Shown: positions 8,097-46,018 of the stretch, one piece after another
Numbering within the stretch: position 1 is the first letter of the stretch
Layout: every line of letters begins with the position of its first letter
From: Amphiscolops sp. MND2022
Lineage: Eukaryota
Length of the DNA stretch: 64,000 nt
Reading direction: 5' to 3'
Assembly: GCA_964187785.1 (NCBI GenBank)
Contig: OZ076409.1
Span: 51,958,001-52,022,000 of the forward strand
Translations under genes and position numbers: made by a program
The notes under the pieces: model-generated
Seen by the model: the letters and a program-made list of their open reading frames with translations, nothing else
The model's database searches: none
Told to the model about the DNA's origin: nothing

Positions 8097-8632
8097 GTAA
8101 GTTTAAATCAATTTGTTTTGTTAATTCATTTAACATGTGACGTTGTGCAGTTAGGGGCTATACCACACAGGACTAAAAATTTGAGTACGGCTCATTATGG
8201 CTGAACCAATTCTGAGATTTGACCGAAAAACTGAATCCGAAAAAAGAGTTTTATTGATTTGATCCAGAGGAACTACGGAATCTTTTGAGTTGCTATCAGA
8301 TGATCACTAGATTAGTTAGTTTTTGGTCTGCTTCAAACCTTTTTCTTTGATAATTGAACATGCAAAAGATACTTTAGACCATTAGAAATCAAAACGTTTC
8401 TGTCAATTTTTCGTTAAAACGTAAACTTTTCCAGAAGCCAAAGAAAACTTAGTCAAATAACTTTTCTATGCTTTTCTTGAGAAGTACATTGAACAGTCGC
8501 GTTTCCTGGCAAGATCTTTCAAGCTACATATTTTTTGCAAGGATCTTGCAAGATTCTTGCACAGATTGGCATTTGATGCCAACGTGAGGTGAGATCCTAC
8601 AACGTTTTCAAATTAGCTTCGACTATATCCTA

Positions 8633-13670: not shown

Positions 13671-13674
13671 TCTA

Positions 13675-14507
13675 GAGTTTGGAAAGTTACAAGTTTCACA
13701 AGAAATAGGGCCTTCCCAAAATGGGTCACCCTGTCCGGCTGAACCACTCATTCAAACACTATCAAACGTGGCATGTATTTGCTAGCGGTTCTACAATAAT
13801 TTTCACTCAAAACACCCTAACCCGTATCTCCCTTTTGTCCCGAGCAATTAACACCGAAAGTTGACCCCATGAAAACCATTTTTTGCTATACATGTTAATA
13901 TTTGATTTTCTCATATGACCTTGAAGAAAATGTTCCTCTGTTGAAAGTAATTTTACTTACATTGTGTAAACATACTTTCTAGCCCACCTGACTAACATGC
14001 CAAAACCAACACATTGTTTGTTTACTTAGCCAATAACATCATATTATGCTCTAAATGTCATTTATTATTACTTACTTTTTTTGCGTTTTTTTTAGAAGAA
14101 TTCTAAACGATATGTATACCAAAATTAGATAGAGACTTTCACGACTGTATAGCTATGGTCAAGTTTGGTCTCCGGACCGCGAGACGTATTAACTTTCCAC
14201 ATCTTTACAACTTTTCGCTAGAGTCAGAGCGAAAAAGTAGCTACTCTCATAGTTGGAGAGCCGGAGCGCGTAAAGATACCGAGCGGGAAGTATGTGCAGG
14301 ATCACATCGGAACCAAGTCAGTGCAAAACGGGATCGCAGGAGATTCCACGGGTCACATCGGACCCTTCAGCCAAAAGATAAAGTCCTTTAAAAACAAGAA
14401 AACCAGTAATTGTTTAGTGACGGTCCACAGCACTAAGCAAAAGATCAGGGCGACGTAAAGCTTGTCGAGCCTCAGCGCATGATAAGGGCAAGAAGGCAGT
14501 CGTTACA
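13675..14507 (+). repeat. BEL 5' LTR (first ~100 bp missing), followed by PBS-like TTTGATCCGACCCGGACAGG
   Basis: Similar to 20655-21495; ends GTTACA at 14507. Confidence 0.85.
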
Positions 14508-18590: not shown

Positions 18591-20554
18591 TGAAAGAGGA
18601 CAAGAGGCGATAGAACTGAAACTGTGCTCGAAATGTTTGTCAGACGCACATTTGATGAAAATTGCTTTGGCAGACTCTGCGACGTTTACGGGTGCGGTGA
18701 ACTTCATCACCGATTGCTACCATCTAACCTGTCCTGAGAAGCCGTGGTGTGCTTCCAGTCATTGCAGTAACGACAGGGAGTGGGAGCAAAACACTGAAAA
18801 CATTTGCTTTGTGCGACTCTGGAACTAATCTGTCGTTTGTAGACGAGAATCTAACGAAAGTGTTGAATCTGACGGGGCAGCCTGTGGATTTGAATGTTGC
18901 AGGGATTCATGGAACCACAGATATTAGTAGCAAACGACTTCGAGTCAAGATTGGAGATCAAGACGGAAGGTCAAAGAAGATGTCAAAGATGGCCTTTAGT
19001 GATCCCAACGTGAATGCAGGAAATCGAACGTACTACTTCAAGAAATTGAATGAAAGAAACATATCCTCACCTTTCACATTTGAAAGACTACCATCAACTT
19101 AGGAGATGTCAAGGTTATCTTGAGACAGGATTGTTATCTTTTGCATAGAGCAACCAAATATAGAAAATGTGGAAACGCAAAGCCTTGAAGGACGCAAAGC
19201 CCTGAGTGCAAAGGAAGCTGGGATCGATGCTCAGTGAGCCGTTGCTCAACAAAAGACTGTGGAACTCGCAACTGAAAGTCTACTTGCAGCAGAAGGGGAC
19301 CCATTAGCGGATCAAGCGAAAAGTCGATGGAGCAAACAATCGTGTGCTTCCAACCGCAGTGTATCCGAAATAATCAAGGAAAGTACGGAGAACTCACAAG
19401 TTATAATCGTCGTAGAGATCAACTGGCGGGAAGTCAGCACTGAATCCCTCCTCGCGGAACTCAAGGAAGTTTGGCAAGATGAAGTGCACCTAAGTGTGGG
19501 TGCCCATAATATAGTCAAACGACAAGAGAACATGGATTGCTTAATTACAGAAGAAAAGTACATGAAAGTCTGGCAGTTACATCAAACCTTCAAACTTCGG
19601 AAGAATTCTGTGTGACGTTTGATTTGCCGAAACAGAAAACAGATGTCGCCTCTGTACAACAGCAGGTGAAAGAGAAGCAGTCAACTCAATTGAAAACGAT
19701 GAAGCTTTAACTCTTGAAGAGGGAAAAAGTATTCTCGAGTAGAAAAGTTAGTATATTCGTGAATGAGTGTCACTTGAACTTCATGAAGTTTCAAGAAGAA
19801 TAGCGATGTATCGAAGACCCTTCAGTGGTTTGATGGAACGAGACCACCCACCAAAGACAATTAAGTAAGGAAACAAACTCCGTAGATGTGTCATTTGGGA
19901 GAAAACACAGTTTTGAGTTGAAAGAAAAACTGAAGGTCCAAATCATTCAAACGATAGTGAAAATTGGAACAATCGGTTAGGTAAAGGATACTCGGGAGTG
20001 GATGCAGTGGCACAGGCTAAACGTTGCGAGTAAACTCATCTGACCAAAGGCCACAGGAAGCGATTTGAGAAGAGAGCTTGGAAGTTTGAACCTAGCTCAA
20101 ACCTATTACCTAAAATGGACGAAAGAGTTCAATTAAATTCAAATAACATCCTATATGCAAAGATTTTGACAGATGAAATTGCAGACGAAATATCACTGAT
20201 GTGAACGCGAATGGGTTCTTCAAAAGCACGAACAACAACACGTTTTGAAAATGGGCCTTGCATGTGGCCGGGCGCCTCATTGGAAGAAATGATGACGAGA
20301 CTTGAATCTTTTGAAAAATGGAACAAGGAAGATGTTGCACAGCAGGAAGTCAATGATTTGGTCTTGATAGTGAATGAAAATGTGAAAAGAGCACATTACA
20401 AGATGGGTAGAGTGTTGGTAGTCTACCATGGAAGCGATGGGCGAGTGAGCTCAGCGCTGGTGAAATGTGAAGATGGAAAACTGAAACGACCAGTACTGAA
20501 ACTGGCACCCGTGTTCTATGAAAAAGTTTTTCGGGAGAAAAACAGTGCCGGTGA

Positions 20555-27100: not shown

Positions 27101-27895
27101 AGAAGGATTTCCTCGTTGATATTTCAGTGACAAGGTTGTATAAACATTCCACCAAAATTCAAGTCAAAATCCATCAAATTCGTCGGACTTTGTTTGTTGC
27201 AATTTTTCAATATCACCATGGATGCTTAATTACTTTTTGTCTTCTTGTTGCGAAGTTTCAGTGTCTTCAATATTTTCTAAATCTAGTTTATTTAATGTGA
27301 GCTAGTTATAAATTTCTTTTTTTTTGAAAGTGGTGGAAATTATTTGTGGAATTCTAATAGATTCGTTTTATTTGTTTGCTTTGAAAATGTTTCTGGTAAA
27401 ATATTTGACTGAATAGTCTTTCCTAACAAAAATATACTTTGATTTTGGGACCTTTAGGTACTTTTGTGTTGGGACCATATGTCGATGTAGTAACCTTTAT
27501 TCATTCAGTGGCGGGTATCCACAATGTTACTTTTATAATTTTTTAATCAGCGAAAATCTCGGCAAAGTAATTCGATGCGATAAATACGGCAAAGGCACTG
27601 TTCTGTTCTACAATTTTCTAGGCCAAGAGAAAAGATTATATTTAAACAAAGTCTCTATTGCTAGCAACTGTATTCTTCTACAACAAACAATAATGTAGTT
27701 TTTGATTAAGTACTTCTTTTCTAGTCTTCTAGACAGTAGATGAACCAAAACTCTGTAGTGGTCAGAAACCGGATTGAACCGTATATGACAGGCACCGCGC
27801 CTCTTGTTGATGGTATATTGAGATTTTAAATTCTTTTTATTCATTTTCTGCAATCATTGATCGATTTTTTTTCTTTCGTATCAATATTTTAACAG

Positions 27896-28290
27896 GTACT
27901 TTGAATGATGCTCAACTTCGAGTACTCGTGGGAATCAACAACGACTCGGATGAACCGGCTCGTGCAGAGTCTTCAGACAGCAGTGATGATGACGGAGTTC
28001 CTGTTAATATTGATCAGACTCTTCATGAAGAAGAGGAATCGGAGGGGACCGAAAACTCCATCCATGGCCCTATAGATAGTGACGAGGACGATAATGACAA
28101 CCATGCGCAATCAGAAACATCATCAGTGTTGACAGAGAATGCTGGCACTAGTGAACATGGCGAACATTCGACAACCTCTGATCTGGAATCATTGTCAGAG
28201 CAGGTTACACCTCTACATTTCGAGTCAAGATTGATTGAAACTGACAGTGAGTTTCGAGACCAGCAACCTCTTACAATTGAAATTTTTAAA
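27896..28290 (+). CDS. SNX19-like acidic linker exon
   Basis: TTTTAACAG acceptor, phase 1; open acidic frame; AAA|GTATTC donor, phase 0, joins the PX exon at 46061. Confidence 0.65.
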
Positions 28291-28451
28291 GTATTCAGAG
28301 CAGTTTAAAACTTTTTTGAAAAGGTAAAAGTAAAATTGGTCTTTGAACTCTTGGTATCTTCGAACAAACTCGTTTCTAAACTTCTTTAGAAGATTCGAAA
28401 ATTACTCTAAACATTTTTCATTTGTAAAACAATTTCATGAAGAACGTATAC

Positions 28452-30343
28452 TGTTGGAACTCACGTTCCTAGTAGTATTTTCATTTCCCAGATTGTCTAT
28501 AGGGTCGGTTTCTAGTTCGAAACGCAAAGCGGAACTGCACTGTTCCAAGGCAGAGTTAGAGAGATTGTCTACTTTTGATGTTAAGTCCTCGATCAATCTT
28601 AGGACTTCTCCCTGTCCAAATTCAGTGTCCCTTAATCGTTTAGACAAGCGATTCTCTATTTTACTGGAGATATCCTCAAAGTCTTGCTCAGAAAGACTAA
28701 CGTTTTCGTCATTCGAGTGGTTACAGTTTTCGATCTCTTCCTGGCTAGTGCTTTGGTCACTTCTCAGTTTCCTTTTCTGTGACTTTTCGGGCATTTTCAA
28801 GAATGTATATTCGCTTGGAAAAATTGAATTGAATATTTTCCTGGTGGTAGTTACAGGCGAGTTATTCCCAAGCAGTACTAGTTGATCACAAAATAATATC
28901 CAAAAAGTTTGAGATTTACAAATGAAAGAATTATCAGCGAACAGGTGAAAACAACAATTATTAAGAGTGTGGAAAAAAATATTTGAAATAGCGGTCAAAC
29001 GGTTCGTACAATTATAAAATAACAACTGGTCCTTTCATTATCCCGCTTCAGGTATATATACTTTACGCTAGACGCGCGGGATAAATCCCGCGCGTGAATT
29101 CACACCTTGTTCAGCTCGGCGTCAATCCGAGGCGGGAAATTTTGAATTGGGTCCGCTTCCTCGGGATTCGGCGTTCGGCGTCATCTCACTTCTAAGGAAA
29201 AGTGGGAATCAACTTTCTGCCGAAGTCCCGATTCCGCTTCGCTTTCTTCGTTTCTTGCCAATTCAGGACGCCGAACCAAAGTTGGCACTGAAAATTCATG
29301 AATCTAGCTACTGAAGCGGGAAAGGAAAGTGAAATTAGCATCGAATAATCCCAAATTTTACTGCTGATAAATTAAGGGAAATGCTTCAAATTATTAAATT
29401 AACAGCACTGATTTCCTTTAAATCAGACAATTATGGCCGTTGATTGGCATTTTAAGTCAAAACGAACATTAAAATCCTGGATGAACGCCGGGTAACGTGT
29501 TTCATTTAGAGTAGCCTGGCCGGTTGACCAGGCGGTTGACGCAACTATACATGAACAAAACACTGCACTGTGATAATAGTGAATAATAGCACTGGGAGGG
29601 TTATTTTACCACAATCTTATTAGGTTTTATATTCAACAAGGACAGGTTTGCAATTCAGGTAGCTAGAAGTTATATATTAATTAAATATGTTCGGTCATCT
29701 GCCCAGGCTGTTGTCTTATTAAAGAAAGTTAGCGCTTTGCCTGGGAAGTTGACTCAAATACAAGGTGGATCAAACATATCAAAATACTTCAAATATCGTT
29801 GATTAGTATTTATTGGATGCTCTTTTGGTATTTAGCTTCTTCTAAGCTGTGAAAAACTTGTTTGAATTAGCATCGATTATTTATGGTTGATTGTTCAGGT
29901 AGTGCGACTGAGCGTGCGTCCCAGCTTCAGTCGACTGGTAAGCTGCCTGGGACGTTGACTCAATTCATCAATTTGTATTATCTGCGCTTAAATCTGATTG
30001 GCTAATGCGGATGGAACTATTGAAATTCACTGCTGCCGCTGAGGCAAGTCCCCAGTCAACGCGTTGATTGAAATAATTTCGGTCGGCGCGCTGGCTAGTT
30101 GACTGAACAAATACTGCATTCACTATCATTATTTAATTATTTACATATCTATGTATTTTAGGTACGGCACAGAGGAAGAAAATGTACGTTTGCGTGTTAT
30201 TTAAACAATATCGGGCTGTTTATTGGTCTTCTATTTTAGATTTGTTTTTAGTAATTCTGATCTGCCCTGGTCGTCTTCCTCACTTCCTTCTTCAGGCGTT
30301 CCTCTTATTATATGTGTTCCGTGACACCTCTGGGGTCGCGACA
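28452..30343 (-). repeat. 3' LTR (1892 bp)
   Basis: Direct repeat of 41986-43879. Confidence 0.97.
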
Positions 30344-30358
30344 GTCCCCGGCTTTCTT
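30344..30358 (-). other. Polypurine tract
   Basis: Minus strand AAGAAAGCCGGGGAC immediately precedes the LTR start TGTCGCG. Confidence 0.75.
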
Positions 30359-31235
30359 GAGGGACGTCCGGTATAGGAGGGTGTGGGGAAATCGGTCTGA
30401 ACGGCGACGAAATAGGCTGTTGGAAAACAGATTGTATTAAAGAGTCGTTTGAGAACCAAGACGAGTCAGTCGTCCAGTCGCTCCCCGAAAAGTAGCCAAT
30501 TGAGCTAGAATGGCTCGAAATGGGACTGACTGTTCCAATATTAGGGGCGAATAACCAGCTGTCCATTTCATGATAATTTCGGGATGGACTGATATTTATG
30601 TCATCTTGGATCACGGGGTTGTCCCTGGTAAATCGCCGGATAGTCGGGCCTTCTTCGCTCGCTATAGAGAAAATTTCCACTGGTGCCGTGTCATGATGCA
30701 AAACCAAATGATCTTCTTCGGTCTTTTTGATCTCGTATACATCATGTATTACGGCTGGGGGGGGGGGCGGGAGCCGTTTTGCGGAGATAATTGGATGGTA
30801 GGGGTAGATTGAGCTTGAGGCAATTTCAGGTATTCGTCCTTGTCGCGGTCCAGAATGAAACAGTCGTTAGATAAATCGAATTCTGGTGTCTGCAGTTTCT
30901 TTTGGTTGTAATTGCAAGTATAGCAATAATTGTTTTGACAATAATAGGCTGCTAACAATTTAAGAGTAAGCTGCGGAATAAAGGTAATTATAGTCAACTG
31001 CGTTGGGAATAGTTGAAACGTTTAAGTGATAATTCCCTTTCTTGTAGTTCGTTCACGCCGCTTGCGTGATTGAGAAAGTTTTCAGCTGGCAGACTGAATG
31101 ACTTCCATTACGTCAAAATAATAATACTTCATATTAATGATTACGTTGTTTTTACGCCACGTCTTCGTTTTAATCCCGTTGATGTTATGGTATGGTACTT
31201 TTTCAGATTTGCATTGTTATTTGTCATAACTTAAG

Positions 31236-34200
31236 ATGGCTGCGTCTACTGATGAGGATGCCGCTCGATTTCTGCAGTCTCGCCAGCTGGGCATTGTCGA
31301 AAGTGATGCAGAGGTGGGAAGGAGGGATGAGTCTGTCGAAGAGGATGAGTCGGAGTCGCGTCTTGTAATTGTGGAGAGTTCAAAAGAAAGGGAAGCGGTT
31401 GAGGAGACTGGAGATCGCGACAGTCCTGGTTTGCAAGGTGCTGGCCGTGTTCCTGGATTTGGAGAGGTGGACGATGGTTCAGAGGAGGAAAGTGCTTCTG
31501 AGAGGGATAGCGCTTCCGATGATACCTTGAATTCCGACGGGGATGGCGAGAGTGGTTCAGCCCATTCAACTGGCAGTGACGCCAGGCATGATATAGACTT
31601 CCCTCGTGACCAGCTTGGTAAGTCCTTAGCTATTCTGTTAATGGCCAGTTAACGTTATGAGAGCTAGTATTCTGACGCGTCAATTCATCTACTTTCGTAT
31701 TCTTTGTAGGTCTTTCTGATGACTCACAAGACTAGGATTTCTCTCCTGGCAAATTGCCTCCCGTTTCTGTGTTTCGGCGGAGTAAGCGTTTGAGCTCTAT
31801 TCCGCAGGAGGGGCCGAGTAAGCGAGCTCGTGAGATGTCGCTTGGTGGAGGCGCTGGATCCGGTGATGAGGAGTCATCCAATGTTTCTACTGTAAAGAAT
31901 GAAGGTAGGCATTCATTTGTGTTTGCTGATTGTCTGGAAGTATCGGGGAATGGGTTGTTTTCTTTCTGTCTTCGATGTTTAGTTGTTGGTTGTGTTTCAG
32001 GTCGTAGAGTTAGGTTTGCCGAAGATGTTTCAAGTGATGCCATCTTCGATGTTCCTGGTGTCTCCCAGGATGATGACGGGATTACCGTCGTTGGTGCAAG
32101 TTCCTTCAAAGCTGTGCATGAGCGTACTCAGCATTCTCGCCCCGCAGAAGGACTGGAGGCTTCTGTTCTTCACAACGAATGGGAGCAAGGTTAATCCTCT
32201 CACTATGTTCCTGGGTGTCGGGTTTTGATTGGTAGCGGGTTGCATTGTTTGGAATATTGTTCATCTCCAGTATTTGCGCTTGTGTTTCAGCTGGCTTATC
32301 GGAAATTCCGGCGGGTGCTGTGTGTCTCTCCTCTTCTCAGGTGTTGGCGTTTGGTCAAGCTGCTGTTCGCTTGGAGAAGACTCAGTCGCGTCTGGAATCC
32401 AGTTCTTTGACCCGTCGTAAGTAACTGCTAAGTTGTTTCCTCATCTGATTGGTTCTCTGTTTTCTGATTGTGGTTCCGACAGATTTGTGTATATCTCGTA
32501 GTTTGTTTGCTTCTGTTGGTCTTTAGTTGGTAATGGTTTTGTTTTTGTTTGTAAGCGTTTAGTTGTGTGTTTAGAGCTGGAAGAAGTTGCGCGTCTTCTG
32601 AAGTCGAAAGCGATTCGCCTGCATCGCGATCAATCTGAGGCTGGAGCCGAGGACGATGCTAAACGGAAGCTGTATGCTTCATTTTTGAAGAAGAAGAAAC
32701 ATCCGACTGAGCGTCATGTACTTCGGAAAGAGATGGCCAAGCATGCGATACCTTTATTGTTTGTGAGCCAACGTTCTGATAAAAGCCCCAACGGGTTCAA
32801 CTGCGCTATCTGTCGCAAGGATATCTCATTCTTGAGCAAGGGAGAACCAAAAATTTGGCGTCACTTCGGGAGTAGGACCCATTTCTTGCGTGACAGGCGA
32901 TACAGGCTCGACCATGAGGATTACTTATACACTCCGCGATTCGATGCTGTGGAAGTCTCGTCTATATCAGCCGAGTTACGGGCTGAGATTGAAAAAACTC
33001 CAGCTGTAGTTCTTGGTTGCAAGAACCCATTCGTCGAGGACGAGGTGGATGCTTTGATTGGGGTGTCATCGAACGTTCCTGCTTCCACTCTTGTGGGGGG
33101 TTTATTTGAACTCCTACGTAGTGGTTCGTCGCACAGTTTCCTCAGGAGGTTGTGGAATCAGTTCAGAACTACCATGCCAGTTGATTCCGAATGTGCTCAC
33201 ACGACTTGGAGCAAAACAGAGTCTCTTGACATTTTGACTCAAACTTTGTATCCAAGGATCATCCGCCGTGTACAGTCCTGGTGTAAGGATGCTCAGTTTA
33301 GCGTCAGTTTCCGTGAAGATCGTGATGGTCTTCGGTGCTTTGTGCACTGTTGGATTGCCGGTATTTTACATGAAGTCTGTGTATTGTGGGAACCCGTGAG
33401 GCCTGGTATCTGCGATGATGAGATTTCCTGTTTGTTCCGTTTGTTAGCTGTTCTTCCTGCTGGGACTACACCTCTGTCGTTGCGGGGTTGTTCATCGACC
33501 TTTTTCAATGTCTTCGTTGAGTGGTGTCGGGCTGATAGTCGTCCTGTGCCGATTCTGATGATGGAATATTCTGTGGAGATGTTCAAAGAACATGTACGTG
33601 AGGCTTCTGGGCCAAATGTTGGGTCTTTGGATCCCTTCTCAATCATTAAGTACCTGCTTCTTCGTTTGGGGAAGGCTTCGCATCAGCCCTGGCTTATGGG
33701 TTTGAGTGAGTTGCGTCGTTGTGTGCAGCAGAGTGCAGTGCCCTTCTCTTCTCTATGTGCAGTGCTGGAAGAATTGATATGTAACTGGGGTGATGTCCAG
33801 TCTTATCTGAAAAAGTCTTCAGTTGTTCCTGCCAGTCGGAATAGGGCGCCCTCTGATTTGAATCCGATGGTCTTGGCTGATGCCCAAGTGTTGCCCCGTT
33901 TGAGCCTGTTACACCTTTTGGTGTCGTGCTTCCAGGCTAACTTCCAGAAACTTGCTGCTCAGGGAGGTTGTGACTACAGATGCCGCAATTATGGCGAGTT
34001 CTGCTTTCTCTATTGGAGCATCCTGAGCAAGATGAAGAAACTCTCTGATCTTCCTGACATCGACTCGTGGAGCGAATACGTTGGGCGACCTCTGACTACT
34101 TGGTCCAATGTGGCGTATGTTGATTGTTTCCGTGGAGAGCGCATTATCGGTTTTGCCATGACAGGATTTACTGAGGCTCGGAAACGGGCTTTCTTGCGAG

Positions 34201-35215
34201 ATTGTCATGGTCTGCTGATGGAATTCTTGAAAGTGTTATCACGTTGTCCATTCATTTTCTCACAATTTCCATCAAATTTGAGTTGCTTCTCGCCAGATAT
34301 GTTGCTTCTGGGAGATGAAAATTATGTTGTTGAACTGTTCCGTGGGTTGATGGTGTGCTTCCAGGAGTGTGGGCGTGTGACGAATGTGGTTGCTGAGGGT
34401 GCCTGCAATGAATTCAAGTCCTTTTTAGTGGAACTTCGCCGTCGTAACCGACGTGTCTTGGATACCATCACAGACACCTTCGTATCCTGCAGCAGTCCGA
34501 GGTTTTTAGCTGTCGTGGGAATTTGTCTCATGTAATCCAGTTGGCTTCGCTTGTGGCTATTCCTCGCGAGGTGCAATACCCAGTCGTGGAGTTCTCCCTA
34601 AGTGGTGTTCAGATCCCCAAGAAGATATTACTGTCCTCCATCTTTGCTGTGCAGTCTTTCGTTTCTGCTCCTGGGTTCAATTCAGGCGAATTGTTGACTA
34701 AAGATTGCTTGCTAGAGTTGAAAGCCAATTTGCCTGTTGGAAGGGACTTTCTGAACAATGAGAGTTTCGCTCCATGGCGGCCACTGTATGTACTCAATCG
34801 TCAGGATCTTTACCGTAGTTTGCGGGGCCGGTTCGATGAAAATTATTTGGAGCAAGTTGCTGAGTGGCGTCGTCGTGCTGGTCAGCCGCCACTTACTGGA
34901 TTAACAACCTCCACGATGTTGTCCGTTGCCGATGTCAGTCCACAAACGTCAGTGGCGCCTGGATTGATTGTGGATTCGTCTGTCTCCCCGTTATCAATTG
35001 GTGTATCTTCTGCTACTGTTGTTGGAGCAGAGGGAGGTACTGGATCTGCGGAGTCTCCTCAGGCTTCCTCTTTGTTTGCTGCTCTGTTGTATTCACCGAC
35101 TTCTTCCCGTGATGTTACCGTTACCCGAATGTTGAGGCAGAAACGAGAAGCTCGACAGGCATCGCAAGAGGCAGCGACAGGGGGGAAAGATTCGACCCCA
35201 GTAAAGAAGCGCTAG
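31236..35215 (+). pseudogene. Antisense cargo gene, 5 exons (31236-31617, 31710-31904, 32001-32189, 32291-32416, 32575-35215), ~1180 aa, BED-finger / hAT-transposase-like protein; this copy has TAG at 31733 and a 1-nt deletion near 34484
   Basis: Four GT-AG introns, all phase 1 and frame-preserving; C-X2-C-X16-H-X5-H finger at 32802-32882; 656-aa plus 230-aa ORFs joined by one frameshift. Confidence 0.85.
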
Positions 35216-35567
35216 AATGGGTTGTCTGCGGCCTGAGGTCGTTGGATTTAGACTTCGTAATTGACTGTAACTTTGTTGTTCCTTCTATATTAATTAATTT
35301 CTTTGTAGTGTTCTTGCAATAGAGAAGTGTAAAATGGGAAAAGAAAAAAGTAAAAAAACCCTCAGTCATGATGGGGTATTATCTCAATACATTTTTGGCT
35401 CCTTGTATGTGGTTTCTCTTGAGTTCTCAGATTGAGAAATAGTGATAAGTGAGTCATTTGCAAGTTAATAAGTAAGACGATTATCCTTCCAAATAATTAA
35501 ATATAAGCAGTTTATAAAGTTGGGTCAATGTTCAGCGGATTATATTACGCATAATCCTTTTTCCAGT

Positions 35568-38500
35568 TTAATGGGGGTCTGCTCGCAAATTGTATTTATT
35601 CTTTCGTGGAGAATTTTGGACCGATGGATCAATTTCATGGTTGTCTGAACTGACGTTAGGTACTGTGTCATTTGGGTGTCCATCTGGGTTAAGTGCTGGG
35701 TGAAAATCTTCTGGGTGGGGTGATCGGGTATCTCTTCTAGTCGCTTGGTCTTCGGGTGCCTCGAGAATTGTTAGGGCGGGTTCTGCCTGTGAACGGGTGT
35801 TGGGTGCGGGCAAAATCTTCGGAGTTTGATTGCCAGGCTTGAGCGTATTGATCGTCATGGAAGACGTCTACTTCCTTGTCTGGTATGTAATCCTTGGGTA
35901 AGACTGGTTTGTCTAGGAGCGGTTTGTCAGTTGGGCACGGTTTTAAGCGGATCCTATGAAGGATTCGTGTAAACTTTGTCTGGAGTTTGCGTATGAGGTA
36001 GTTGTTGTTTGGCAAGACTTTGACGACTATGTAAGGTCCTGTCCAGAGGTAATCTCTAAACGGGATTTTGGTGCCATGGGTAATCGCTTTCGGATGAAGT
36101 GCGTAGCAGTATTCGTTGACGTGTAGGGGGTGAGCGTTAGCTTTTTTGTCATAATACTGTTTGTATCGTATATAAGATTGCATTAGGTTTTTGCTCACAG
36201 TTTCTTTATCTGCTGTGTTTTATGGAGTATATCTTCTCCAGGGACCGTCGTCGGTGTTGTTTGTTGTGCGTTACGGATGCCAAGTTTGAGGTCTAACACG
36301 TTGTACGGTATCCTCCCGTGGAATACCCTGCTTGGTTCACAACCTAGGGCGGAGTGGTACAACGTGTTGTAGTTAAGCGTTGCAATAGCCACGTATTGGT
36401 GCCACATTGATCTTCTTTCACCGGTTGAGATCTTTAATGTCTCCTTTAGAGAGGCGTGGCATCTCTCTAGTATTCCAATGGTTTGGGCGTGTTTAGTCGT
36501 GGCATGTCTGAGTTGTATGCCCAGGGTTTGAGTTGCGTCGGCCATGACTCCAGACATGAATTGCGTGCCTTTGTCTGTAATGACTGTGGTTGGGAGGTAG
36601 GCATGGCGTGTCATGATATCTACCAAAACTCGGGCTACTGTGGGGGCATCCGTTCTGATTACGTTGTAAGTAAACAAATGGCGGGTCCATCGCCGTGATG
36701 ATTGCAGTGTAGCCGCCGGAGGGTTCGTCAAAGGGGACAATATCCATTTGGAGGGCATCTTCCGGGCCTAGGACCATCTTGGATGTGTCTACCATCGGTG
36801 GCGTGATGGACCGTTTGTCCGTTCGTTTCGTCTGCATACATTCGGTGCATCGGGAGATGTGATGAGCTATCCTGACTGACCTGCCCGGGTAGTAGTATTT
36901 CTCTCGACACTGCTGTATGACTTTCGCTAAGCCGGGGTGTTTACCTGCCTGGCCATGGTGCGCTAGAATGAAAGATTCGATTAGGTGCTCAGGTAGCAGA
37001 ATCTGTAGGAATTTGACTTTTCCTGCGTGATCGTAGTACTGTCTGTATAACAGTCCATCTTTTAAGATTATTCTGCTGTCCTGGGCAATGTATCGAGCTG
37101 CGCGGTGGTCGCTTGCTAGGAGTTGCTCGTTGTAAGGTTCTTTAAGCAAGCGGAGTTTATAGTTTCGCAGGACGTTGTCTTTGTCCTGTTGGTGTCTCAT
37201 GGTCTTCAATGGACCCTCACACTGTTAGTTTCGGAAGTTGTTTGAGTTACTAGTACTTCCGTTTGGAAGAGGGTAATTTCTTGGTCACTGTTCGTTGTTT
37301 CTGTAGTTATTTCGTTTGTTTGGGGAGGGGGGTCGACTTCGGAAGTGAATTTCTTGCGGGCGCGGAGCTTACGCTCCCATATTTGTATTTGTTCTTCCAT
37401 TTCCAAATCGTCATCGGGCATGAAAAAAATTGTTCTTCTTCTGCAACATCGGACGACTGGATACTTACCTGGATAGGTGTGGTACGAATATCGTCCCGTA
37501 TCGTGAGGTGTACTTTGTCTTTCGGCTGAATGTCAAGGCGGGACAGGAAATCCGCGGCTGTGTTCATTTTGCCCGGTACATGAGAGATGGTGAAGTGGAC
37601 TTGGAGGACGAAATCGCACGCATTCCACAAAGCTTGTGGGATGATTTTCGTCTGGAAAAATCGCGTCACAGATTTGTTGTCCGTGAGGACGACAACCGGT
37701 TTGATTGATTCCCAAAGAATGTGGCTACTCCATGAAGGCGAAGTAGATGGCCAGGAATTCTTTCGCATATATGGAAATTTTTATCTGTGACGGCGAAAGC
37801 ACTTTGGAACCAAATGCCACTGGTTCATAGGTTTTCCTGACTGACGTGATCTTTTCTTCTGCATTCTCCTCAATCATGAGGGCGTAACCCGCTTTCTTGA
37901 AGTTGGCGTCGGTCATGAGCACGTATTGTCTGTTGGGCATGGGTTGTTTGAGCCGTAAACCGCACGCGTTGTCTAAGGATTTGTTGATGCTGGTAAAGCT
38001 GTCCATGATCTCTTTTGTGATCTTGATAGGATTTTCGGCTTTGATAAGATCGTGGAACGGGGCTATCTTTTCGGAGAGCCTGGGGATATAGTTCCGATAG
38101 TAATTTACGAAGCCAATGTAGAGCTGTAGGCCTTTCTTGGTTTTCGGGAAGGTCAATTTTTGCAGGTAATTCTGGATCTTTTGATCTTGTGGGGCAATTC
38201 CCTCGGGTGACACGGTTCGTCCAAGGAGTTGGACTTCCTTGGCATCGAACTGGCATTTAGCCATTGTCAAACGCAATCCTGCTTCGCGGACGCACTGGAA
38301 GACCTCACGCAGGTTGATCTTCAACTCCTTAGCGTTATGGGTGGCAATCCCGATGTCATCGACGTACTGAGCGCACTTGTCAGCTTTGATGACTCTGTCA
38401 AGATATTCTCTCATAAAACTTGAGAAGGAGGAGAGGGATCTGCTGAGCCCTTGTACGAGGCGCAGGTATGCGAATGTTCGACTGGCGAAATTGGAAGCTA

Positions 38501-40923
38501 GTAGTTCTACCGACTTTTCGTCTGCCATCTGCAAGACGTGATAAGCCTGGGAGCAGTCTAGCTTGCAGAATAGCTTCTTTCCGGCGAGATGTTGTGCTGC
38601 GTCGGAGAAGGTGGTGACGGGGTGGTTGTTGTTCGTATAGTCATCAGCTATCAGGCTGTTGATCTTACGGAGGTCCACTAGTAGTCTAAGGCGCCCGTTT
38701 GGCTTTCGTTGAGCAAATATGGGGCTTGAGTACTTGCTGAACGGTAGTGTAGTTATGATGCCATAGTCGTGCATCAGGGCAAGTTCCACCGTGAGATCTT
38801 CCTTGAGGTTTACTGGGCAGGGTAGGCTCTGCGTGTATGCAGGCTGGTCATTTTTGGGCGTCAGTTTTATTTTGAAGTCGTGGTTGACTCCAATGTCTAG
38901 GCGGTGGCGAGCGAATATGTCGTGGTATTCGACGAGGATGTCCTCTATATCTTTCCGGTCTTGTTCGCCAAGCTGTGAGTCTTCCCACTTGAAGTTCTCA
39001 ATGATTTTCTGTTCTTCCTGTGGGCTGTTTGTGGGGTTCAGCTTCTGGATTTCCTCTAGTTCTTCAATTTCTCTAAGGATTCGTCTTTGGACGGGGGTGT
39101 GCGAGGAGGGGTCGCCCGGGTTGTCCGTGGTGGGGAACCAGAACTGTTGGGTCGTTTCTGGCTTTTCCGTTGTTTTTAGCAATTCGTTTACATACTCAAG
39201 AGCTTGTTCTGAGTCGTCTTCGGTTAAGACCTTTATTGCCGCTGTGGATAAAGGTTTGAAGTTTTTGGCTTCTTTTGGTGTTGTGATGTGGAATTCGGCT
39301 ACCACTGTGTTCTTCTTGATAGTGAATGGAGTGGGTGAGGTATTCGTGAGTCGAATGGGTACTCTCATGTTATGGACCGTGGATAGGGAGCTGGCGAGAC
39401 CTATGGGTTTGTCATCTGAATAGTTCTGAGTTGGTTGGATGATGCCATTGGTATCCGCGATTGATTTGAAGTTGACTATGGCTTCAACTGTGATGCACTG
39501 GTCTGGGGCCAACGTCGTTTGGTTCGTGAGGGTCACCTTGTGTGGTTTTGGTGTTTGCTCAACGGTGGTGGCGTTTATTGCGTAAGTTAGGTGAGGGAAG
39601 TGTAGGAGTCCTTGGCTGGCGTCCAGTATGGCGCTGTTGTTCTTCAGGAAGGAAAGGCCCAGGATAGGGCCTGTGATTTTGTTTGCCACGATAAAAGTTT
39701 CCTTGAACGTCCAATCACCAATTTCAAACTGGACTTGGATTGTCTTGGTTGGACATTCACTGTCGCCATTTGCGACCTGTAATTTGAAAGGTGGAGGATC
39801 AGTTTCTTGAAGAATATTGTTAGGACTCATATTTTTCAGTTTTTGGAATTCACGTTCGGGCATACAATTGACTAGGGCGCCGGAGTCAATGAGTGCGTCT
39901 ATGGAGAAGTGTTGAAAATCCATTGGCGCGAAGAGCATGCGTCTTTCCTGTTTGAGGGCGATTGCCGAAAATGAGGGTAGGCATTGTTCGCCTGTCGGGC
40001 TGTCGCTGGTCGTGATGCTGGTTAATAGATTTGGGTCCAGCTGTAGCAACATATTGCTCTCATTCTGTTTGTGGTTGTCGGGTTCGTGATTTTCCTTGGT
40101 ATCGGTATGTGCATGGTTGTCGAACTCGTGAGTTAGGGCCCTTTTGATCCGTCTTGTTTTTGGTTTTGAGGCGACACAGGTTTGGGTTATGGGGTTGACG
40201 GGTGTCCCCGGCTTTGTATGTGTCGCATACAGCGGTGGTTGTGGTTTCTGTTTGATGTGGGCGTTGTTTCGTTGGAAGTTCTGGGCTCTGAGGAGATGAT
40301 GGTGATGATGTCATTGAGGCCCTGATTTCGTTGGTGGATGCCGGAGTTCTTGTAGGTGACCTGCTTACGGTCGTGTCGTGGACAAGTGTTTTGAGGATTG
40401 GCTTAAGAGGGTAAGCTGGTGGTGACACGACGACTTGTAGCTCCATGTCTTGTTCGTCGGCGTGGGGTATGGGTGGCTGATCACCATTGTTTTCAGTTCT
40501 CCTCTTGGTGATGTCCTGGTTCATATTCGTCTTCTTGACGAATTCATGGAAGGATACGTTAATCGTCTCTTTGAATGTTAAGGTTGTTTGGTCGTACAAG
40601 TCGGGGCTGTGGTAGGGGTCACAACCGTAGTCGGGATCATGAATGTAAGTCTCGGGAGTGGAACTGGAAGGGAGAGGGCGTCTAGTTGAGTTATACAGTT
40701 GGGGGTTTTCTAAGTACCATTCCGGGCATTTCAATTTGTCTACGGTGGATTTGTTAAACTTTATGAGGCGTCGAATGAGCCATCTCCGCTGCCAGTCGGT
40801 AGATGGTTCACCGGAGCATTCTGCAAACATTTCGGAATCGAGGTTCTTCGGGGGTTCAGATATCGTGTAATATCTGTAGTCGATGTAGTTCCCGAAGCGA
40901 AGACGTGGCTGTAGTAGTTTTTT
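35568..40923 (-). pseudogene. pol: Gypsy pol (protease, RT, RNase H, integrase with GPY/F motif), frameshifted
   Basis: ALIDSGA; KLDCSQAYH and YVDD; MTDANF..EFLAIYFA; integrase Zn finger AHHG..HPG..CTEC; LQMDIV, DKGTQF, LERCH; WTGPY. Confidence 0.96.
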
Positions 40924-42330
40924 GGTTCATTCGTAGTTTGCGTCACGGTTGGTGGTTGAGACATTGGTGCAGTTTGCGGCTGTTGCATTTGGGTAGCTTG
41001 TGATTGTTGAGGGATCGGGATTTTGTTTGGAGGTGTTGTTTTGGGTGTCTTCCACCACGTTGGGCGGTTTGCCCAGTTGGCTCCCGAATAGCAATCTTTT
41101 GTCTCATGGCTCATTTTGCCGCATGCTTCGCATGGTGTATTTTGGGTTGGATTTTGGTTTCTTTGGGATCGTTTGTCCCTGTTGGTTTTGCGACAGTTTC
41201 GTAATAAGTGTCCTGGGTTGCCGCACCCAAAGCATACTCCTGTTTGTTTGGGGGGTTTTTCTTGTTGTTGTTGCAGGATTAGTTCGAGGTTGTTTACCCC
41301 TGTAATTGATGAGCTGTCGGTCGTTGCTAGATCTTAAGTTCGATTTCCCTTTCGAGGTGTTGTACCATTGTTTCATAGGACTCCGTCTCGCGTCGGGCTT
41401 GCTTCAAGACCCTCTTGAGGTGGGGCGGCATCTTAGCGTAAAATGAAGTTTCTATAAACCTGGAGGCATCTTCTCCGTACGCTTCCTGTGCCAATTTCTG
41501 GTACTGTTCTAGGAAGTCGTTGAAGGTTTGTTGGCTCGGGTTAAGAGATAGATTTTCCCATTTGCAGCGTGCCGTTGCTACAGATTGTTGTCGAACATAT
41601 CTGCGGCGGAAGCCTGAAAGAATGTCATTGAGATGTTCACGGGTGGCATCAGTCATATTTCTGAATGTTTGTAGGGCTTCGCCCCGGAGGAGGGAGTGAA
41701 AGTAGTGGATCTTCTCTTCTTCTGTAATGTTGGGGTACACTTTCAAGCTCGTTTGAAAGAGAACCTCTAAGTGTTCGAATTTGTCTGGTTCCTCATCAAA
41801 TGTGGGCATCGTGGTGGACATGGCTTTGGGTAGTCTGCGAATTCCAGTGTTGTGTGTGGTTGCCGTTTGCAACGATAATAGAAGCTTATCTATGAAGTCA
41901 TCAGGATGCCTCTCGCTTGGAGGCGGCAAGCTTGATGATCGTTGGTGGCTGTTTTCTTGCTGGTTCGCGGAAACTCCTGTCATCATGTTGGAACTCACGT
42001 TCCTAGTAGTATTTTCATTTCCCAGATTGTCTATAGGGGGTCGGTTTCTAGTTCGAAACGCAAGGCGGAACTGCACTGTTCGGAGGCAGAGTTAGAGAGA
42101 TTGTCTACTTTTGATGTTAAGTTCTCGATCAATCTTAGGATTTCTCTCTGGCCAAATTCAGTGTCCCTTAATCGTTTAGACAAGCGATTCTCTATTTTAC
42201 TGGAGATATCCTCAAAGTCTTGCTCAGAAAGACTAACGTTTTCGTCATTCGAGTTGTTACAGTTTTCAATCTCTTCCTGGCTAGTGCTTTGGTCACTTCT
42301 CAGTTTCCTTTTCTGTGACTTTTCGGGCAT
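40917..42330 (-). pseudogene. gag: Gypsy gag starting inside the 5' LTR, two CCHC knuckles, frameshifted
   Basis: ATG 42330 (MPEKSQKRK); capsid-like MPTFD..KFE..EKIHYFHSLLRGEALQ; CFGCGNPGHLLRNC and CEACGKMSHETKDC. Confidence 0.88.
41973..41985 (-). other. Primer-binding site, degenerate, tRNA-Leu-like
   Basis: TGATGACAGGAGT directly after the LTR end CA; 2 mismatches to TGGTGTCAGGAGT. Confidence 0.55.
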
Positions 42331-43879
42331 TTTCAAGAATGTATATTCGCTTGGAAAAATTGAATTGAAAATTTTCCTGGTGGTAGTTACAGGCGAGTTA
42401 TTCCCATGCTGTACTAGTTGATCACAAAATAATATCCAAAAAGTTTGAGATTTACAAATGAAAGAATTATCAGCGAACAGGTGAAAACAACAATTATTAA
42501 GAGTGTGGAAAAAAATATTTGAAATAGCGGTCAAACGGTTCGTACAATTATAAAATAACAACTGGTCCTTTCATTATCCCGCTTCAGGTATATATACTTT
42601 ACGCTAGACGCGCGGGATAAATCCCGCGCGTGAATTCACACCTTGTTCAGCTCGGCGTCAATCCGAGGCGGGAAATTTTGAATTGGGTCCGCTTCCTCGG
42701 GATTCGGCGTTCGGCGTCATCTCACTTCTAAGGAAAAGTGGGAATCAACTTTCTGCCGAAGTCCCGATTCCGCTTCGCTTTCTTCGTTTCTTGCCAATTC
42801 AGGACGCCGAACCAAAGTTGGCACTGAAAATTCATGAATCTAGCTACTGAAGCGGGAAAGGAAAGTGAAATTAGCATCGAATAATCCCAAATTTTACTGC
42901 TGATAAATTAAGGGAAATGCTTCAAATTATTAAATTAACAGCACTGATTTCCTTTAAATCAGACAATTATGGCCGTTGATTGGCATTTTAAGTCAAAACG
43001 AACATTAAAATCCTGGATGAACGCCGGGTAACGTGTTTCATTTAGAGTAGCCTGGCCGGTTGACCAGGCGGTTGACGCAACTATACATGAACAAAACACT
43101 GCACTGTGATAATAGTGAATAATAGCACTGGGAGGGTTATTTTACCACAATCTTCTTAGGTTTTATATTCAACAAGGACGGCTTTGCAATTCAGGTAGCT
43201 AGAAGTTATATATTAATTAAATATGTTCGGTCATCTGCCCAGGCTGCTGTCTTATTAGAGAAAGTTAGCGCTTTGCCTGGGAAGTTGACTCAAATATAAG
43301 GTGGATCAAACATATCAAAATACTTCAAATATCGTTGATTAGTATTTATTGGATGTTCTTTTGGTATTTAGCTTCTTTTAAGCTGTGAAAAACTCGTTTA
43401 AATTAGCATCGATTATTTATGGTTGATTGTTCAGGTACTGCAACTGAGCGTGCGTCCCAGCTTCAGTCGACTGGTATGCTGCCTGGGACGTTGACTCAAT
43501 TCTTCAATTTGTATTAACTGCGCTTAAATCTGATTGGCTAATGCGGATGGAACTATTGAAATTCACTGCTGCCGCTGAGGCAAGTCCCCAGTCAACGCGT
43601 TGATCGAATTAATTTCGGTCGGCGCGCTGGCTAGTTGACTGAACAAATACTGCATTCACTATCATTATATAATTATTTACATATCTATGTATTTTAGGTA
43701 CGGCACAGAGGAAGAAAATGTACGTTTGCGCGTTATTTAAATAACATCAGGTTATTTATTGGTCTTATATTTTAGATTTGTTTATGGTAGTTCTGACCTG
43801 TCCCGGTCGATTTCCTCACTTTCTTCTTCAGGCGTTCCTCTTATTATATGTGTTCCGTGACACCTCTGGGGTCGCGACA
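41986..43879 (-). repeat. 5' LTR (1894 bp)
   Basis: Direct repeat of 28452-30343 with a 2-bp longer G run near 42036. Confidence 0.97.
42589..42631 (-). promoter_or_regulatory. LTR TATA box (TATATATA) with adjacent 24-bp GC-rich palindrome; also at 29053-29095
   Basis: TATATATA ~260 bp upstream of the gag ATG; ACGCGCGGGAT-AA-ATCCCGCGCGT. Confidence 0.55.
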
Positions 43880-44010
43880 TATACTATTTCCAGAACGTAT
43901 CAGTTTGCACTTATTTTTTTCTTTTCTGTATTGCCTTCGTTTTGATATTTTCATTCTTTTTACATTTTCCTTTCCTTTATCCTACGTTTCTCTCTTTTAA
44001 ACTATCTTGA

Positions 44011-46018
44011 TGTCGGAGGCTACCGCCTGTGATGGCAACGTTTATCAGGTTGCCCAAGAAGGAGGTAATTCAAATTCTCTGTCAGGTGTTTTACCCATCT
44101 GAACGAAAGTACCTTAGGTCCCCTTGACTATAAGAAAACTTTCAAGCCCTTTGTATATTATACAGGTTTTAGTTAGACTTGTGTATTTATTACACATAAT
44201 TAATCAGGACCTTGTTTTTACCACTTTCAATTTGGACCTAAACTAAGTGTGACTACAGTAATTCCGAGGTTCAATAATCAGTTTTACTTTTGTAATCGTC
44301 CAAGTGTTGCGTTAACATTTATTCATTATTCAGAACTAGTACTTTACCAATTGTCATTGGTTGTCAACTTGATAATACTGTGCTGATTTTAAAGCAAGTT
44401 TAACTGGTGCACGTAAGGAAAAGCGTCCAACTGGACTAACGCTCTAGTTCAGTTGACGCGTGGTCCACACTTGCCAACCAATCACATTGCAGTATCAAAT
44501 GTAAACAAATTCATACTGTAATCAACAGGACTCAATGTCCACTCTGTTGACGTTGCCGCTTATACACATAGAAGTCATTCAGAGCATGAAAGCACTCAAC
44601 CAAGTAAAAATTTGAATCAATTCATCTTCCCCTGATATGTAATGGTTATCAATAGTAGTGTTGCTATTTCTAGACCAGAGTTGCTATCACGGAAGCTGAC
44701 GTAATATTCTACCCTAAAGTCAAGCTAATTATGACCCCGATGTTGTAATAAACAATTGTATCTCCATGACACCCTGTTTTCTGTGTGTCATCGCCCGCTG
44801 AGTATAAATAGCTTGACACCCGCAACAAGAGGGATCATACTAGATCAATTATCAAATTGATACAACACTCTCCAAACCTGATATCTATACTCCTAAATTT
44901 GTTGTTACTTTATACAGTTGTTTCGGACGAAATAGAGTGAAAAAATGATTACCTTTCGCGATTCTTTCAACTGGAATCATAAGACCAAAGAAAAATGTTC
45001 ACGATTGTCCAAAGTAATGTCAGACTTAAGCAAGTTCGCAACGGCCGAAAACAGCGCCATATCTAAGGTTCAAAAATAACAAAAGGACTTCAAAGTGTCA
45101 AAGTATTCTCTGCTTAAGTATTCGAAAAAAAACGAAAATTGGCCCAGTTTGTTGCGCCAAGAGGATCCTTTGAGATCTTTCTTCCATTCTGTCACAAATC
45201 GTCAAAAAATAAGGGGCCCTTTGTTGTTATTTTTTTTTAAAAAAAAGTCACAATGCTGAAAAAATTGAAAAGGGAACCCTATGGGCTTGTCCAGTTTTGT
45301 ATGTGATGCTAAAAAAGGAACAAAATATAGTCCAATTTCCTGAGCCAAGAAGTACAACTTGCGCCCTAAAAGTTTGTAAAGCTTTTGATAGAACTTTTGT
45401 GGACAATTCAATTGCATTGAAAAAAATACTGACGAGCACTCATGACAATAGTCTATTGTTTTAAAAAAAATCGAATAAAAGTATGGACGGAATGTTCAGG
45501 AATTTTCCCAGACGTGTTCATGATAATCATTCCACTTGAGAGAGGTCAAGGTGGACTCAATGTCCGGTGGTATACAAAAAATTACTGATAGAACAGGTTT
45601 TTAGATCATAGTAGATTTTTTAGATCATTTTAGATTTTTAAATAGCAATAGTAGAAGAAATGGCGAAATGACCTCTGAGACAGCCAGAGTGGTTTTTTCA
45701 GAATTAACTTCTGAGATGACAAGGAAACTAAATGAAATAAAATTGAACTAAACTCACAAATTCTACAACCTATAGACGCTGCAATAGGAGACAAGGTACT
45801 TCACCAACTGCAAAATAATCTTGGTGTGTCTGAAACTGGACTGAACGCAAAGTTGGGCCATCGGTCCGCGCGACTACATAGGAACACCGAAGTCAATCCT
45901 AGCATCCTAGCTATGGAGCGAACTCTAAACAATCCAAAAAGGATCAAAATCACGGTAACTCTGTTCACTATAAAAGAGAGTTCCGTAGACTCCCAAATGA
46001 GTGAATTAGGTTTTGACA
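44011..46018 (+). mobile_element. Solo LTR of a related Gypsy family with decayed internal gag-N ORF and a nested insert (45028-45480)
   Basis: TGTCGG...TTGACA; 5-bp TSD CTTGA at 44006-44010 and 46019-46023; TATAAATA near 44803; peptide remnants like the ORF at 53645-54230. Confidence 0.85.

Follow-up and report, generated by a model that had tools for sequence, protein, structure and literature searches.

Why would a retrotransposon carry, on the strand opposite to its own genomic RNA, a gene that is interrupted by introns, and does such a gene belong to the element at all? The question is raised by a locus of Amphiscolops sp. MND2022 (assembly GCA_964187785.1, contig OZ076409.1, forward-strand positions 51,958,001 to 52,022,000). 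The whole stretch of 64,000 nucleotides that we analysed is referred to here as the window, and positions are counted from its first letter. A first-pass annotation of the window had described a Gypsy retrotransposon with an antisense, intron-containing gene for a hAT-transposase-like zinc-finger protein and had proposed that an animal long terminal repeat (LTR) retrotransposon had domesticated a catalytically dead DNA transposase. Based upon the anatomy of the element and the predicted structure of the protein, we regard it as highly probable that the gene belongs, as an integral accessory gene, to a large clade of Ty3/Gypsy-type elements and that its product originates from the hAT fold.

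The antisense gene and its place in the element

Located between the 3' LTR and pol, the gene occupies the plus strand, converges with pol, and consists of five exons and four introns. We compared it with copies taken from one genome, the window's own (1.07 Gb in 1929 contigs), in which exon-5 DNA yielded 434 first-look candidates; the 40 that were scored are 83-100% identical, and the genomic copy numbers given throughout are likewise first-look counts rather than censuses. Rhodopsin-type receptor genes are numerous in this genome (75 matches at E ≤ 1e-10 from 1133 first-look candidates), which marks it as that of an animal. Two sets of copies were modelled: 12 close copies, which are loci with 1.5-kb flanks aligned on a common strand, and three divergent copies (C5, C10, and C7), which were taken with 18-20 kb of context and whose exon-5 proteins are 48-49% identical to that of the window. 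The parts of the gene are as follows.

31236-31617, plus strand: exon 1, with the ATG at 31236; acidic and Ser-rich; length 382 nt in each of the 12 close copies
31618-31709, plus strand: intron 1, 92 nt, phase 1, GTAAGT..TGTAG
31710-31904, plus strand: exon 2; the window copy has a TAG in frame at 31733-31735
31905-32000, plus strand: intron 2, 96 nt, phase 1
32001-32189, plus strand: exon 3, with a conserved peptide block common to the C5, C10, and C7 copies
32190-32290, plus strand: intron 3, 101 nt, phase 1, GTTAAT donor
32291-32416, plus strand: exon 4, with a homologous exon in the C5, C10, and C7 copies
32417-32574, plus strand: intron 4, 158 nt, phase 1, GTAAGT..TTTAG
32575-35215, plus strand: exon 5, 2641 nt, which encodes the main body of the protein; in the window copy its frame is thrown off by a one-base gap after 34487

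The first-pass annotation had placed all four introns at exactly these positions, and each has GT..AG ends and a pyrimidine-rich acceptor and is in phase 1 if translation starts with the ATG at 31236. Joined, the exons of the window copy form a frame of 3533 nt, or about 1177 codons, which carries the two lesions that had also been called: the TAG in exon 2, where the other 11 close copies have a sense codon, and the single-base gap, which had been put near 34484 and is a gap relative to 11 of 11 other copies. An extra 6 nt, in frame, are present at 35114-35119 of the window copy. Among the 12 close copies, the start codon and the four introns are found at identical places, exons 1-4 measure 382, 195, 189, and 126 nt in nearly every copy, and the GT..AG ends are kept in 46 of 48 introns, the two exceptional donors being one AT and one GG. 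The three divergent copies likewise have homologous exons 1-4 and four phase-1 introns at matching positions, with GT..AG ends in 12 of 12. The spliced coding sequence is free of stops in four of the close copies (1136-1175 codons) and in all three of the divergent ones (1094, 1110, and 1127 codons), such that an uninterrupted frame of 1094-1175 codons is present in seven of the 15 copies modelled. Intact exon-5 frames of 830-890 amino acids occur both in the public protein collection and in the genome. One entry of the collection, P0013, is 49% identical to the window protein and has dozens of open copies in the genome at 98-99% identity, and further protein types at 72-75% identity are found in the same genome.

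Substitution patterns point in the same direction. Between sublineages of the window's type, the nonsynonymous rate (dN) is 0.055-0.057 and the synonymous rate (dS) 0.57-0.59, for a ratio of 0.09-0.10, which is far from the value near 1 that had been named in advance as evidence against the gene. Inside one young sublineage the ratio rises to 0.43-1.09, which is what copies that decay after insertion should show. Among the three divergent copies, exon 5 differs at a proportion of 0.16-0.17 of nonsynonymous sites (pN) vs. 0.79 of synonymous sites (pS), the latter being saturated, while constraint is weaker on the N-terminal exons, whose ratios are 0.14-0.20 within this set of copies and 0.37-0.43 in comparison with the window copy. 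Introns 2-4 of the divergent copies are 41-53% alike, compared with 68-71% for exons 4-5. By these sequence comparisons, the gene is under purifying selection and is a real gene of the spliced type. Conservation of intron 1 exceeds that of the exons, both in the close copies (95-98% vs. 83-94%) and in the three divergent copies (77-87% vs. 55-71%), and this intron contains short palindromes. A role of intron 1 as an RNA hairpin was considered and rejected, as six folds (the four introns, two of them on both strands) gave z-scores of -0.16 to +1.32. ACGCGT palindromes were also considered as a binding site common to intron 1 and the LTR; these are present, but their pattern is inconsistent across elements, and this candidate was likewise dropped.

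The element that surrounds the gene is a complete LTR retrotransposon at 28452-43879, whose sense strand is the minus strand. Its main parts are listed here, while those next to the antisense gene are given further below.

28447-28451 and 43880-43884: target-site duplication of 5 bp, the same five bases outside both LTRs
28452-30343, minus strand: 3' LTR, identified by blastn against 41986-43879; ends TG..CA
30344-30362, minus strand: purine-rich tract adjoining the 3' LTR, a putative polypurine tract
35737-40310, minus strand: pol (protease, reverse transcriptase, RNase H, and integrase by Pfam), with the integrase part split into several frames
40060-42570, minus strand: gag, in several broken frames in the window copy, with its start inside the 5' LTR
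41986-43879, minus strand: 5' LTR, the blastn partner of 28452-30343; ends TG..CA

The LTR pair is ~1.9 kb long (1892-bp LTRs) and is 97.47% identical across 1894 columns in a blastn of the two ends; an earlier gap-free scan had picked up 300 nt of it. The pol pieces of the window match the Pfam families gag-asp_proteas, RVT_1, RT_RNaseH_2, Integrase_H2C2, rve, and Integrase_p58_C, and an intact pol of 1950 amino acids from a related copy has its protease at residues 446-538, reverse transcriptase at 849-1014, RNase H at 1084-1216, and integrase at 1422-1776. From this order of domains, the element is assigned to the Ty3/Gypsy type, and the location of the gene inside a Gypsy element and convergent with pol is thus borne out. 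Related copies have an open gag frame of 497-524 amino acids that matches DUF1759 and Retrotrans_gag. It should be noted that the gag start codon falls within the 5' LTR, which encodes 118-132 gag codons in four related copies and therefore accounts for a matching open stretch in the 3' LTR (28435-29034, minus strand). The element is further set off from its flanks by a strand asymmetry at 30001-42000 that the flanks lack, with a plus-strand GC skew of +0.14 to +0.26 and an AT skew of -0.15 to -0.34, and its sense RNA is therefore rich in A and C. The window copy itself is an older, decayed member of the family, in which gag, the integrase, a further sense frame (ORF3, described below), and the antisense gene are all broken.

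This decay of the window copy is what might favor an explanation in which the gene is a recent or chance nested insertion, a host gene captured in one copy, or an incidental stretch of antisense coding. The other copies argue strongly otherwise. The C5, C10, and C7 genes each lie between LTRs that are 99.6-99.95% identical, with gag and pol on the opposite strand, and the pol C-terminus is convergent and directly downstream of the gene in all 27 copies sampled (11 of the window type, 12 of the P0013 type, and four of a remote type). The remote type, which is only 27% identical in the C-terminal half of the protein and 36% around the zinc finger, occupies the same position in LTR elements and is abundant in the genome (8052 first-look candidates, many with open frames). 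Its equivalent of exon 5 is split by at least one extra intron; one such intron, of phase 0, occupies an identical position in two copies and is bounded there by canonical ends. The first-pass annotation had named a nested insertion flanked by its own terminal inverted repeats and an 8-bp target duplication, the hallmarks of a hAT transposon, as the outcome that would count against it; neither was found around the gene, and of the 14 pairs of inverted repeats in 30344-35800 none brackets it. Together with the layout shared by lineages at 27-49% protein identity and a dN/dS of about 0.1, the silent sites fit the strand bias of the element. Four-fold degenerate sites of the gene are composed of T 0.37, G 0.26, C 0.21, and A 0.16, which is roughly the complement of the composition at such sites in pol, on the other strand (A 0.33, C 0.37, G 0.16, and T 0.14), and this mirroring is read as a mark of long residence of the gene in the element. 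We therefore give next to no credence to a nested or incidental origin and return to an integral accessory gene, whose four introns can survive reverse transcription because the gene is antisense to the genomic RNA of the element.

The fold of the encoded protein

The protein is ~1100-1175 residues long. Its N-terminal third, encoded by exons 1-4, consists of 18-20% Asp plus Glu and 17-21% Ser plus Thr, contains basic patches, and is probably disordered. The translation contains all the features that the first-pass annotation had read from the letters, namely the acidic, Ser-rich N-terminus, the basic patch, the zinc-finger motif, FSVSFRED, and the C-terminal EFKSF stretch. The body of the protein, within exon 5, has the following regions.

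32802-32882, plus strand: C-X2-C-X16-H-X5-H zinc-finger motif, with ligands invariant in family alignments
33096-34681, plus strand: region with a hAT-transposase-like predicted fold; approximate, mapped from residues 178-706 of the relative P0001
33297-33569 (approximate), plus strand: RNase-H-like beta-sheet core within the hAT-like region, followed by the all-helical insertion and the C-terminal part

To obtain a structure, we modelled with AlphaFold2 the open exon-5 product of 880 amino acids designated P0001, which is 89% identical to that of the window, using a 20-sequence alignment. The model has a mean predicted local distance difference test score (pLDDT) of 71.5, with values of 84-95 over most of residues 220-400 and 520-670, and within it residues 245-335 form a beta-beta-beta-alpha-beta-alpha-beta core, after which helices continue to about residue 770. 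It thus combines the RNase-H-like core, the large helical insertion, and the C-terminal packing region by which hAT transposases are recognized. A Foldseek search of the PDB with this model gave 12 matches at E ≤ 0.001, and the 11 that were listed are all chains of the Hermes hAT transposase (E 3e-5 to 5e-4, probability 1.00), with the next row at E 0.017. VIA-align aligned residues 156, 178, or 215 to 706-707 of the model with residues 113, 116, or 142 to 609 of Hermes (Z 12.1-12.9, root-mean-square deviation 4.9-5.5 Å, 379-402 residues aligned), and the runner-up family, the ISCth4 transposase, reached Z 5.6. In a run against all representatives, independent of Foldseek, Hermes was the sole chain with Z ≥ 8 among 48,161. 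An ESM Atlas feature search listed two unnamed clusters first and then Dimer_Tnp_hAT, DUF4371, FAM200-ZBED5, and GTF2IRD2-like entries at 0.89-0.93. The hAT-like structure that had been anticipated is thus supported by the predicted structure and the list of language-model neighbors, upon which the proposed link to hAT transposases is based.

Relatives of the protein are numerous and nameless. Protein-collection searches returned 46 and 43 matches, all of them unnamed ENA-derived entries whose cluster members are likewise nameless, and a HMMER scan of 1.84 billion representatives gave 854 matches, mostly fragments. Among JGI metagenome contigs, 108 pattern matches were obtained, none of which was confirmed as a relative. 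Ordinary hAT transposons also reside in the same genome, with 2215 first-look candidates for Dimer_Tnp_hAT, and five of their open transposases (597-697 amino acids) carry the usual signature blocks. A search of this genome for DUF4371 gave no match, and the control query likewise matched nowhere.

Several observations on the protein weigh against the reading given here, and the first of these concern its descent. The quoted resemblances of FSVSFRED to the hAT block FSLxxDESTD and of the C-terminal stretch to the hAT dimerisation region could be detected neither with Pfam nor by profile-profile comparison. Pfam gave 0 families at E ≤ 0.1 for the window open reading frames (ORFs) of the gene; no hAT model (Dimer_Tnp_hAT PF05699, DUF4371, or zf-BED) matched 20 family members at E ≤ 1, and none of these models was found among 20 remote relatives. 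A PDB sequence-profile search returned a chance row only (E 0.084), and an hhalign comparison of the family with the five hAT transposases of the same genome gave a probability of 0.1. The fold match itself, at ~5 Å deviation and 10% identity, is to a single solved family, and 160 residues of the model fall below a pLDDT of 50. All four ligands of the zinc finger are kept without change in 20 of 20 family members and in eight of eight sequences that include the remote type. A BED-type finger is only a possible reading of this motif: the N-terminal 240 residues of exon 5 taken alone gave a poor model (pLDDT 59.5), for which Foldseek gave 0 rows at E ≤ 0.001 and the best VIA-align Z was 5.5, over the helices at 163-232. 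Rows of this N-terminal model to small C2H2 fingers (TUT1 and spliceosomal proteins) were weak and not significant.

The catalytic positions are where an active enzyme has to be weighed, namely a hAT-like transposase or nuclease that is still functional and whose cutting or joining of DNA serves the element or some other mobile sequence. That the whole transposase body is kept, and not only a DNA-binding part, would suit such an enzyme. So would the conserved acidic columns: the one at P0001 residue 676 is Asp or Glu in 100% of sequences, several more in the core are conserved at 80% or above, and an acidic cluster directly follows beta-1 in the sublineage of the window, all of which tells equally against a dead protein. 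However, among 20 sequences, no column with at least 80% Asp or Glu is found on beta-1 (247-254) or just after beta-4 (308-310), where two of the catalytic aspartates would be expected, the signature blocks of the genome's real hAT transposases do not align, and no terminal inverted repeats surround the gene. We consider an active enzyme very improbable. Of the claim that the protein is catalytically dead, the absence of conserved acids at these two positions stands, while the loss of the two catalytic aspartates can be proposed only tentatively, as the register was taken from predicted secondary structure and not from a superposition.

The upstream block, ORF3, and exchange of the cassette

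The stretch that precedes the gene contains the following features.

30231-31021, minus strand: ORF3, a sense frame, frameshifted in the window (frames 30231-30866 and 30749-31021), with its end inside the 3' LTR
31047-31166, plus strand: conserved 120-bp non-coding block that separates ORF3 from the antisense gene and is a candidate for an internal promoter, perhaps a bidirectional one
31081-31098: 18-mer with an E-box, inside the block
31131-31138: TATA-like run, inside the block
31150-31166: 17-mer with CACGTC, inside the block

The block is invariant or nearly so in six of six aligned elements, compared with just 40-45% identity of the exon-1 DNA between the window and the C5, C10, and C7 lineages, and its E-box 18-mer occurs 366 times in the genome vs. 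0 for the reversed control. ORF3 terminates 50-80 nt within the 3' LTR. It has homologues in the C5, C10, and C7 elements (38-55% amino acid identity, E 1e-12 to 1e-39) and is open in two close lineages, with 198 and 208 amino acids from the Met (L054:2754-3458 and L055:2750-3430, minus strand). Between these two lineages, a pN of 0.21 vs. a pS of 0.67 indicates purifying selection upon ORF3 as well; no Pfam family matched it. Since ORF3 and the antisense gene are divergent around the conserved block, this is a candidate bidirectional promoter.

ORF3 and the antisense gene together behave as a cassette. Two elements, one comprising loci L025/L026 and the other L027/L028, have pol proteins that are 99.0% identical over 1399 amino acids and DNA that is 97.8% identical over 8.9 kb of pol, gag, and 5' LTR, whereas their accessory proteins are 74% identical, their exon-5 DNA 70%, and the stretch of ORF3 and the antisense gene about 70-81%. 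In L025/L026, the 3' LTR is ~630 bp shorter than its own 5' LTR. Conversely, accessory proteins of the window type that are 78-92% identical to the window's (mostly 90-92%) are found beside pol ends of different types. This distribution indicates that the accessory cassette is exchanged among gag-pol backbones by recombination. The cassette also generally evolves faster than pol, with 48-49% vs. 70-72% identity between the window and the three divergent copies.

Rapid change of this kind could reflect an anti-silencing function, in which the protein would bind element DNA or host repressors and the cassette would diversify in an arms race. The swapping of a fast-evolving cassette between backbones with nearly identical pol, the close accessory proteins beside pol C-termini of different types, and the many protein types that occur side by side in one genome are all in its favor. 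Nevertheless, the overall dN/dS is low, at 0.09-0.10, and ordinary recombination of co-packaged RNAs explains the exchange of modules. As an account of what the protein does, anti-silencing therefore seems to us distinctly unlikely, and we return below to a DNA-binding accessory protein that regulates the element's own promoters.

Several observations concern the element and its surroundings more generally. Three equal-scoring copies of the gene lie on one strand of contig C10 (2574282-2604013) with a spacing of 13,639 bp, which suggests a tandem array of elements with common LTRs, and similar pairs are found on C5, C8, and C11. Rfam gave nothing at E ≤ 0.1 on 28000-44500, and tandem repeats inside the element are limited to two weak rows. 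An open frame of 165 amino acids, rich in Asp, Glu, and Ser, is located directly outside the 3' LTR (27811-28308, plus strand). Elsewhere in the window, the AT skew is -0.14 to -0.33 at 8-14 kb and +0.10 to +0.21 at 14-20 kb, with raised G+C, and 8001-20000 may hold further mobile elements.

Possible functions and comparison with known systems

What might such a protein do for the element? In the sequence of steps that we propose, the gene would be transcribed from the conserved internal promoter candidate at 31047-31166, and its transcript would be spliced by the host and then translated. The protein would be imported into the nucleus, where it would bind DNA through its zinc finger and its transposase-derived body without cutting it, and it would serve the element in trans, the acidic N-terminus being its effector region. 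DNA binding, the loss of catalysis, and a regulatory role are all inferred. As an overall explanation, an element-borne accessory gene for a nuclear DNA-binding protein accounts best for the data, and we hold it to be moderately probable. The most plausible single role is that of a transcriptional regulator of the element's own promoters, which is favored because an acidic region, basic patches, a zinc finger, and a transposase body prone to oligomerize together make up the architecture of a transcription factor; taken singly, we would call this role possible rather than probable.

Integration targeting is another role to be considered. Here, the transposase-derived body would tether the pre-integration complex or the integrase to preferred sites. 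Tethering is known to govern the site choice of LTR retrotransposons such as Ty1, Ty3, Ty5, and the chromoviruses, a precedent that lends this role some appeal; a DNA-transposase fold with an invariant zinc finger would suit the recognition of DNA, and the gene is kept under purifying selection in every sampled lineage. On the other hand, a long acidic N-terminus would more usually mark an effector or activation region, and the one target duplication read here carries no information on site preference. We view targeting as unlikely, if by no means far-fetched.

To the adverse points listed for the protein, two others must be added that bear upon regulation of the element's promoters. Within the L025/L026 and L027/L028 pair, the LTRs are 95.5-96.5% alike while the accessory proteins are 74% identical, and a tight co-evolution of protein and LTR does not fit this. 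In addition, use of the promoter candidate and splicing of the transcript are both deduced from conservation. With these points in mind, we would describe the element, with slightly more doubt than conviction, as a "complex" invertebrate retroelement that carries a sense ORF3 and an antisense multi-intron gene for a hAT-derived zinc-finger protein around a common internal promoter, with the cassette being reshuffled among backbones and the protein serving as an element-specific DNA-binding factor, whether for transactivation, targeting, or anti-silencing.

A picture of this sort would have several consequences. Transposase domestication is known as a deed of the host, whereas here a second selfish element seems to profit; if this is true, one class of transposable elements has domesticated a transposase from another class to promote its own spread. 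Purifying selection has kept a protein shaped like a DNA transposase in the retrotransposon, through lineages down to 27% protein identity. The coexisting protein types, the swapping of modules, and the conserved internal promoter candidate make this a testable system. At a more practical level, gene predictors that meet such copies will annotate hundreds of "hypothetical proteins".

Antisense accessory genes of LTR retroelements as such are already known, and the closest parallels are found in plants. Ty3/Gypsy elements of the Retand, Grande, and RIRE2 lineages have additional antisense ORFs between pol and the 3' LTR that are lineage-wide, that mostly encode a TRP28 domain (PF04195), and that are suspected to be DNA-binding regulators (PMC11963269, PMC7264820). 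These resemble the present gene in their position, their antisense orientation, and their conservation across a lineage; introns go unmentioned in the text of those two papers, whereas the present gene has four and, in the remote type, at least five. TRP28/Transposase_28 (PF04195) was not matched by Pfam in either the window ORFs or 20 family members. The present gene further differs from the plant ORFs in its animal host, its ~1100-1175 codons, and its predicted hAT-transposase fold.

A second parallel comes from the human T-cell leukemia viruses (HTLV). HBZ is a small basic leucine zipper protein whose gene has one intron. The HBZ gene of HTLV-1 is a spliced antisense gene with transcripts that start in the 3' LTR (PMC1459196), and both HBZ and the HTLV-2 protein APH-2 share with the present case an antisense gene near the 3' end of a retroelement, theirs being spliced and encoding a nuclear regulator (PMC1459196, PMC11963269). 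The present gene differs from that of HBZ in having a promoter-like block inside the element, four introns, and a product that appears to be transposase-derived.

Among animal LTR elements, those of bdelloid rotifers have captured third ORFs (env, DEDDy, GDSL, and others), and they resemble the present element in that acquired extra genes are common to several retroelement types (PMC5408684). The words "intron", "hAT", "transposase", "opposite", and "zinc" are absent from that paper, and its single "antisense" refers to small RNAs (PMC5408684). OVEX1 was also considered as a precedent and was rejected, as its ORF3 is sense (PMC2717909). The first-pass annotation had stated that it knew of no described animal example, and our searches agree, although absence cannot be proved in this way: the literature covered, a scope that left Repbase reports and most subscription journals outside, yielded no LTR retrotransposon of an animal in which an antisense gene has introns or resembles a transposase.

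With Hermes and other hAT transposases, the present protein shares the fold of its body and the presence of an N-terminal CCHH zinc finger, and with the domesticated hAT genes (ZBED, GTF2IRD2, and FAM200) it shares what appears to be a loss of the catalytic acids. Unlike either group, it has no sequence or profile similarity to hAT proteins and no terminal inverted repeats or 8-bp duplication, and the proposed domesticator is a retrotransposon and not the host. What is new here is thus an antisense accessory gene of an LTR retroelement in an animal, with several introns and with a probable derivation from a DNA transposase. As a natural multi-intron gene carried through reverse transcription in antisense, it extends to animals the conserved antisense accessory genes so far described for plant Gypsy elements and a few retroviruses.

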